Shown: in pieces, positions 1,656 to 2,170 of the stretch
How the letters are laid out: every line of letters starts with the position of its first letter
Position numbering within the stretch: the stretch's first letter is position 1
NCBI GenBank assembly: GCA_044892525.1
Contig: CM097885.1
Span: 21,206,001-21,270,000 of the forward strand
DNA from: Schmidtea polychroa
Lineage: Eukaryota
Direction of reading: 5' to 3'
DNA: 64,000 bases
Notes under the pieces: generated by a model
What the model was told of the DNA's origin: nothing
The model's input: the letters and a program-made list of their open reading frames with translations, nothing else
Databases searched by the model: none
Program-made: the position numbers and the translations under genes

Positions 1656-2170
1656 ATGTCTCATTTTATGGAAAATCTTTTAAGAGAACTCGTCAACAAG
1701 AATATTATGGAAAGCCTCTGTTTCCTGGTCGATCGGACCGAAAAGATCATAGAAGGTAATCACATTGATTATGATGATGTGATCAATTCCGATTGTCTCG
1801 AAACCAAAAAATTCTATTTTAATAGGATTTTTAACTACCTATGCGACGAGGAGATGAAGTGGACCCGAATACTAGTAGGGTTCGCTTATATGAAGATAAT
1901 AATTGAAAAAAGTCTATGGGACTCCGAGCACTATTATCAGTGGTCTCAAGAAGTAATACTTTTATAATCTATATTTTATTAATATTTATTTTCTAGATAA
2001 TCAAGTCAAAGTTTCAACCATGGATTGAAGCCAATGGCGGATGGGGCGTACTCAATCAACTCGCCAGAAATGCAAAAGAAATAGACGATCAGAACAGAAA
2101 ATTTAAAAACTATATTAAACTTGCAACAGGTGTTGCTATTTTGTATGTTTTATGTCGGTTTTTTAAATAA
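1656..2170 (+). CDS. Spliced Bcl-2-family protein (156 aa); exons 1656-1952 and 1997-2170
   Basis: BH1-like EEMKWTRILVGFAY in exon 1. A 44-nt phase-0 GT..AG intron (1953-1996) joins exon 2, which has BH2 PWIEANGGW and a C-terminal anchor YIKLATGVAILYVLCRFFK*. Confidence 0.88.

Follow-up and report, generated by a model that had tools for sequence, protein, structure and literature searches.

The locus considered here raises the question of whether a short open reading frame close to the left end of a planarian mobile element conceals a spliced Bcl-2 gene and, if so, where that gene came from and what its product might do. In the window, the 64,000-nt stretch of Schmidtea polychroa DNA that was analysed, ORF calling reveals at this place only a 103-aa ORF (1656-1967). 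A preliminary description had proposed that removal of a 44-nt GT-AG intron would add a BH2 motif and a tail anchor to the BH1-like segment of this ORF, and the sequence bears out that arrangement. On the plus strand, exon 1 (1656..1952) comprises 99 codons for helices 1-6, including the BH1-like segment, and is followed by a phase 0 intron (1953..1996) that starts with GTAATA and ends with TTCTAG, and by exon 2 (1997..2170), which encodes BH2, an amphipathic linker and the tail in 57 codons plus a stop codon (2168-2170). Removal of the intron yields 156 codons. The BH1 core reads KWTR (1857..1868, +) in place of the canonical NWGR, and the BH2 motif WIEANGGW (2021..2044, +) and the predicted C-terminal tail anchor (2114..2164, +), a 17-residue hydrophobic segment with a mean hydropathy of 1.75 and basic residues on both sides, both lie in exon 2 and are gained by splicing.

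The start codon of the gene is preceded by a CCAAT box (1596-1600) and by TATAAATA (1620-1627), which together (1596..1627, +) are likely to constitute its promoter, and an AATAAA motif (2166..2171, +) overlaps the stop codon. The CCAAT/TATA elements are kept in three subfamilies, including the sister subfamilies represented by copies L049 and L060, and a CCAAT box is also found upstream of the Bcl-2-like gene of a second Maverick family. The interval 1550-1656 presents a single CCAAT box between two outward-facing TATA-like boxes, and the region likely serves as a bidirectional promoter for the Bcl-2 gene and for a minus-strand ORF (1119-1550; 143 aa) with a hydrophobic N-terminus and coiled-coil-like sequence. 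The Bcl-2 gene had been placed next to the left terminal inverted repeat; it is indeed near the repeat, but it is the second gene inside, with the 143-aa ORF intervening.

The element that carries the gene (175..23889) is a Maverick/Polinton with AGTAGA...TCTACT ends. This assignment is based on its terminal inverted repeats (175..1039 on the left, with the inner end at about 1039, paired with 22816-23889), on the AG...CT termini, on a flanking 6-bp target duplication (AAACTT; 169-174 and 23890-23895) and on the Pfam identification of a packaging ATPase (Pox_A32; 4557-5183) and a retrovirus-like rve/chromo integrase (10964-12052). Pfam also identified a TBP-like gene (PF00352; 4020-4457, -; E 2e-15), in divergent orientation relative to the ATPase gene, and, adjoining the right terminal repeat, a gene for a RING protein of C3HC4_3 (IAP-like) type (22435-22761, +; E 6e-10). 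The scanned RING ORF (22435-22761) gave no match to a BIR domain, and upstream of this ORF the frame remains open from a possible acceptor near 22210 onward. Genes of apoptosis type are thus located near both ends of the element, the Bcl-2 gene on the left and the RING gene on the right. ORFs of 1052, 407 and 351 aa occupy positions expected for PolB and capsid genes and are kept in the second Maverick family; Pfam named none of the three, and the 1052-aa ORF is a putative pPolB and the 407-aa ORF a putative major capsid protein, in view of the gene content of Mavericks and, for the former, of polymerase motifs identified by visual inspection. The ATPase and integrase genes are separated by an inserted gypsy LTR retrotransposon (5508-10668), whose 245-nt LTRs are identical. 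Several other genes of the element look spliced or devoid of a plain start, namely the integrase ORF, which contains an (ATT)n stretch at about 11350-11425, an acidic minus-strand gene in pieces (2270-2640, -) and acidic pieces at 15680-16320 (15.7-16.3 kb). A frame at 14680-15050, presumably protease-like, has no ATG in the ORF list.

The high copy number of the element provided a direct view of the intron. A pattern search across the 781 Mb of scanned genome returned 1,319 matches (663 + 656) in which the two exon ends are separated by an intron, and none in which they are separated by 0-20 nt, as expected of an intronless form, or in which reversed control patterns were used. The pattern had GTAA and TAG fixed, and this count is no measure of their conservation. 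With exon 2 placed by protein alignment, an AG directly precedes it in 49 of 51 rows, and of the other two, one belongs to a decayed copy and is offset by one base, and one is a spurious second match. Intron lengths of 44, 45, 46, 47, 50, 51, 52, 54 and 55 nt were observed among 100 matches listed, with a range of 30-60 nt in other copies, and all three frames are represented while the exons keep theirs. Of the 30 closest copies, 27 keep both exons open, whereas two have a frameshift and one an early stop.

Variation in the intron itself was also apparent. In one subfamily (L046-L048, L059, L060, L067 and L068) its interior is a (TTA)n microsatellite of 42-60 nt, and two copies (L063 and L064) have 30-nt introns that are possibly too short to splice. 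Three older, decayed relatives (L062:6330-6710, L074 and L076), about 50% identical in exon 1, also have a GT...AG pair where the intron lies, around interiors of unrelated sequence, which indicates that the intron is old within the lineage.

The preliminary description had named reads across the 1952/1997 junction as a check on splicing, and contigs from two sequencing runs guessed to be RNA do join exon-1 ends to position 1997. In a contig from run X1, position 1997 follows immediately on the final 10 nt of exon 1, and in a contig from run X3 it is preceded by 57 nt of the exon-1 end of a sister subfamily. Another X3 contig carries a run of non-templated A residues about 13 nt past AATAAA, where the genome has no such run. 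All of this evidence comes from study P1, as three contig ends contributed by two of its runs, and the reads are not assignable to the window copy. Unspliced intron sequence is also present in both X1 and X3. None of the runs listed as holding the sequence is on record as RNA, which speaks neither for nor against splicing. Run X2 gave little coverage and no junction, and the DNA-like run X4 showed no 1952-1997 joint among the 13 joints listed, which is a weak control because short-sided junctions appear only as loose ends, 214 of which lie outside the listed rows. Overall, these results establish that the intron of the Maverick Bcl-2 gene is real.

Purifying selection acts on both exons. In exon 2, dN/dS ranged from 0.06 to 0.31 in all seven subfamily pairs analysed (protein identity 69-92%), and in exon 1 it was 0.08 and 0.11 in the two of seven pairs that were not saturated, with the proviso that these pairs are not mutually independent. 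Third positions account for 18 of 26 substitutions in exon 2, and its other two frames contain 2-7 stops. Across subfamilies that are 69-92% identical, the Trp and Arg of BH1, the PW..NGGW of BH2 and the tail are kept. These observations bear on the proposal that there is no intron and that the 103-aa ORF is either the product or a frameshifted relic. Protein databases contain only the unspliced 103-aa form, a search with that ORF returning one match among two candidates, an unspliced unnamed copy, and unspliced sequence occurs in the guessed-RNA runs. The proposal is nonetheless contradicted by the junction contigs, by intron lengths that vary independently of frame, by the selection on exon 2 in its spliced frame and by the end-to-end fit of the joined protein to intronless relatives, and we consider it extremely improbable.

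The spliced product belongs to the Bcl-2 family. Searched separately, the exons match the PF00452 profile weakly but in the correct order, exon 1 at positions 18-67 (E 0.01) and exon 2 at positions 86-100 (E 0.24). Sister copies with an in-frame intron (L046-L051, L059 and L060) score above the PF00452 cut-off in spite of it (32.6-34.5 bits), and a 98%-identical copy read through its in-frame intron with X reaches E 3.4e-7 (31.2 bits against a cut-off of 31.4). In a structure search with this copy, all 60 rows shown were Bcl-2 family members (best E 6.6e-4), as were all 60 rows shown for a profile built from five Maverick sequences only, which reached Bcl-xL at E 4e-7. As a weak lead, exon 1 adjoins PF00452 clusters in the Atlas at 0.93, with low recognition.

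Structure prediction was consistent with this assignment. A model of the 98%-identical sister copy was all-helical (pLDDT 75, pTM 0.64), and the 39 rows listed by Foldseek were all Bcl-2 family members, including Bcl-xL, Bcl-2 and a schistosome Bcl-2, with probability 1.0, TM of about 0.5-0.6 and a best E of 2.6e-3, none reaching 1e-3 among the rows listed. Two of five models reached pLDDT 75 and three were poor; the fold evidence amounts to one model. Its input contained 10 intron-coded residues, and the underlying alignment, which included eight non-Maverick rows (host family members), was not independent of the Bcl-2 family. The Bcl-2 fold anticipated in the preliminary description is hence supported by the model, rather than proven, and for a sister copy instead of the exact 156-aa product. 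At the C-terminus, a 17-residue window with a short core, a hydropathy of 1.4-1.9 and basic flanks was found in all eight copies examined, colinear with the tail of the host protein Bcl2-1. A short tail with basic flanks suggests a mitochondrial, or ER, location.

The comparison with host genes pointed to a likely donor. The closest kin of the Maverick gene is planarian bcl2-1, represented in our set by the Schmidtea mediterranea protein P0002 (ACW83059.1 / C9WPR4 / FJ807655.1), a name assigned to ACW83059.1 in a supplement row of PMC4993586. Exon 1 aligns with residues 37-126 of this protein (23% identity) and exon 2 with the adjoining residues 127-178 (31% identity), in both cases free of gaps, so that the predicted exon ends fit to the codon. 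Besides this colinearity (residues 37-178), the two proteins share a BH1 lacking N and G, a YxxWS motif in helix 6, BH2, the amphipathic linker and the tail. A 30-row tree places bcl2-1 and P0013 in one clade with the two Maverick families (98/95), to the exclusion of the other host paralogues; the latter have close partners in S. mediterranea Bok-1, Bok-2 and Bax-2. With a length of 1.7, the branch leading to the window Maverick family is long, and the tree software issued a warning that long branches meet, but the gap-free alignments and the shared motifs agree with the kinship. Similar warnings accompanied a quick 72-row tree; the careful tree contains 30 of those rows and leaves out Burro, P0009 and 40 database rows. 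P0013 (JGI/IMG, 927-nt contig) is a 166-aa protein of the bcl2-1 clade encoded by a single ORF across the host intron position, and may be either a transcript or another element-borne copy; in a metagenome scan with P0013, a single one of 596 candidates matched, and it proved to be an unrelated Bcl-2 gene of cellular origin. A separate feature of the genome is a set of seven near-identical Bcl-2-family exons with canonical NWGR within 0.9 Mb (G000:C4:89948841-90831822; L031-L037).

The host orthologue of bcl2-1 is a single-copy gene, 89% identical to the S. mediterranea protein, with two exons at one locus and an intron after the GGW of BH2. The second Maverick family (G000:C1:247541000-247554000, L083 and L084; also L088/L089, L099 and L100) is 60% identical to the window element in PolB, 77% in the major capsid protein, 68% in the integrase and 82% in the ATPase. 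It carries an intronless 144-aa Bcl-2-like gene (BH1 CWSK) that is about 45% identical to the bcl2-1 core and adjoins homologues of the TBP-like gene and of ORF 2760-3170 in another arrangement. Since the host intron is missing from both Maverick genes, capture through spliced mRNA is suggested, and the sequence comparisons make it likely that the gene was taken from host bcl2-1. The intron of the window family lies 16 codons upstream of the host intron position and is absent from both host bcl2-1 and the second family, which is most simply explained by its gain inside the element. The converse scenario, in which host bcl2-1 would be a domesticated Maverick gene, was rejected, since the host intron position is common to four other host paralogues. 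A tree in which the two Maverick families are constrained to group together is compatible with the data by the AU test (p 0.366), and the unconstrained tree does not settle their branching; the data fit either one capture or two.

Identification of the likely donor changes the interpretation of the BH1 motif. The preliminary description had read the departure from NWGR as altered groove specificity, yet the essential pro-survival protein Bcl2-1 reads RWSR in the same columns, as does its S. polychroa orthologue, and this weakens that reading. The remaining members of the clade read KWSQ (P0013), KWTR (window family) and CWSK (second Maverick family). In the 30-row alignment, W-G at the motif core is found in 13 rows, all of them canonical-type proteins, the BH1 glycine is absent from six other planarian-type rows besides bcl2-1, and host bok-1, bok-2 and bax-2 also depart from NWGR, which is a consensus and not a requirement of the Bcl-2 family. 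The notion that KWTR embodies a viral change of specificity was rejected on the grounds that the host donor also lacks N and G, and the loss of both residues likely predates the element, is likely for the most part inherited and is compatible with ordinary pro-survival activity. In solved Bcl-xL complexes the BH1 arginine pairs with the BH3 aspartate; this arginine is kept in KWTR.

Knock-down of bcl2-1 results in systemic cell death and lysis (PMC4993586, PMC6970515). Descent from this pro-survival gene supports, as likely, the earlier proposal of an apoptosis modulator. The reading that we favour, and hold to be fairly probable, is that of a two-exon Bcl-2 gene in a high-copy Maverick, likely derived from bcl2-1 and likely encoding a tail-anchored inhibitor of mitochondrial cell death during element replication. 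Following capture through spliced mRNA, the window family would later have gained its intron inside the helix 6-7 junction. Host RNA polymerase II would transcribe the gene from the CCAAT/TATA promoter, and the spliceosome would remove the intron, a step required to add BH2 and the tail. The tail would then insert into the mitochondrial outer membrane (or ER), and the protein, its groove keeping the BH1 arginine, would hold Bak/Bax-type pro-apoptotic or BH3 partners, allowing the cell to survive the stress of element replication and integration. BH3 binding and a Bax/Bak block are suggested by bcl2-1 descent.

At 23% (exon 1) and 31% (exon 2) identity, function may nevertheless have drifted from that of bcl2-1. 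Some viral Bcl-2-fold proteins, such as poxvirus A46, A52, B14 and K7, act outside the apoptosis block, and the Maverick protein might likewise modulate innate-immune signalling, autophagy or mitochondrial/ER calcium. The low identity to the donor, the absent BH1 glycine, the additional lack of the BH1 arginine in the second Maverick family and the presence of PF06227 on 11% of members in one Atlas neighbour cluster of exon 1 would fit such a role, but the donor has the same kind of BH1 and the subfamilies keep the BH1, BH2 and tail residues noted above, and we regard it as unlikely. The fold is also common to multi-BH pro- and anti-apoptotic proteins, and adintoviruses are described as having membrane-active genes (Starrett et al., PMC8502044), so that a pro-death protein, or a dominant-negative decoy of Bcl2-1, helping particle release or late killing could be envisaged. 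A Bak-like killer is made less likely, however, by helix 2, which lacks the BH3 Gly-Asp pair: it reads Leu-x3-Val-Asp, and in L049 and L060 the Asp is replaced by Asn. The ancestor, moreover, is a pro-survival gene, and a killer would be costly in a family with more than 1,000 copies that is transcribed (guessed-RNA contigs) and has both exons open in most close copies. We deem this role very unlikely.

Inhibition of cell death by an element-borne Bcl-2 protein would have counterparts in known systems. Adenovirus E1B-19K and the Bcl-2 proteins of herpesviruses and poxviruses combine a short Bcl-2 fold lacking the long loop with a presumed pro-survival role in a DNA virus. The Maverick gene shares these traits and a virus-like DNA genome, but the viral genes are independent captures, and it differs from them in its more than 1,000 integrated germline copies and in being split by an intron. 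The parallel previously drawn with E1B-19K from its position near the left end carries no weight. A search of viral_contigs returned no relative of the Maverick Bcl-2 gene (0 of 61 candidates), which says nothing on particles. Closer parallels are found among adintoviruses, in which homologues of Bcl2 and IAP are described (Starrett et al. 2021, PMC8502044, section 3.2), so that the anti-apoptotic cargo invoked in the preliminary description is in print. As in the window element, these are accessory genes of animal Polintons/Mavericks, with an IAP-type gene in the same element class. The portions of PMC8502044 consulted do not give donor gene, splicing or function, and the parts of its supplement examined contain no match to Schmidtea or Dugesia among the adintovirus elements. 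Our literature search, which lacked key planarian papers and Repbase, found no published Bcl-2 gene of planarian Mavericks. The class of cargo is therefore already known, and to it the locus adds a donor that can be traced, a gained intron and a high number of copies.

A second parallel lies within planarians, where Burro LTR retrotransposons are described as containing a BCL2-like motif (PMC6431247, section 7). The genome contains many ORFs, about 3,050 aa long and located ahead of gypsy-type pol, that match PF00452 (L078-L080 among them) and fit this description. Like the Maverick gene, theirs is Bcl-2-like cargo of a giant mobile element in the same host group; unlike it, the domain is part of a retroelement polyprotein, reads NRDK at BH1 and falls on a very long separate branch of the 72-row tree. 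The Burro1 IAP-like region is cited as protecting stem cells (PMC13465017, citing Lee et al. 2026). This precedent, together with more than 1,300 copies and spliced, polyadenylated contigs (guessed RNA), could be taken to mean that the Maverick gene now serves the host, many copies being expressed in stem cells and adding to their survival. The selection measured between element subfamilies reflects element replication and not host benefit, however, random frameshifts and stops occur in 3 of 30 close copies and no domesticated single copy was seen, which leaves service to the host quite improbable. Beyond it, and only as a speculation to which we give little credence, Mavericks might have taken the one essential survival gene of the host, given it a new intron on whose removal BH2 and the membrane anchor depend, and dispersed it over more than 1,300 loci; splicing in stem cells would then be the switch by which these copies supply part of the resistance to cell death, in a second host-element mutualism beside Burro1.

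The locus represents a rare case in which the cellular donor of a viral-type Bcl-2 gene can be named. That donor has a lethal knock-down phenotype, and the function is thus directly testable in a model animal group. The host gene is single-copy, encodes 184 aa and is interrupted once, after GGW, by an intron about 3 kb long; the element gene encodes 156 aa at 23-31% identity, lacks the host intron and has a 44-nt intron of its own. The presence of a spliceosomal intron absent from the host gene contrasts with intact vertebrate Mavericks, described as having no introns (PMC8097293), and ORF-only annotation overlooks spliced Maverick genes of this kind. In planarians, Bcl-2-like genes occur in two Maverick families as well as in the Burro retroelements, a pattern suggesting that apoptosis is a chief obstacle for large mobile elements in animals so rich in stem cells.
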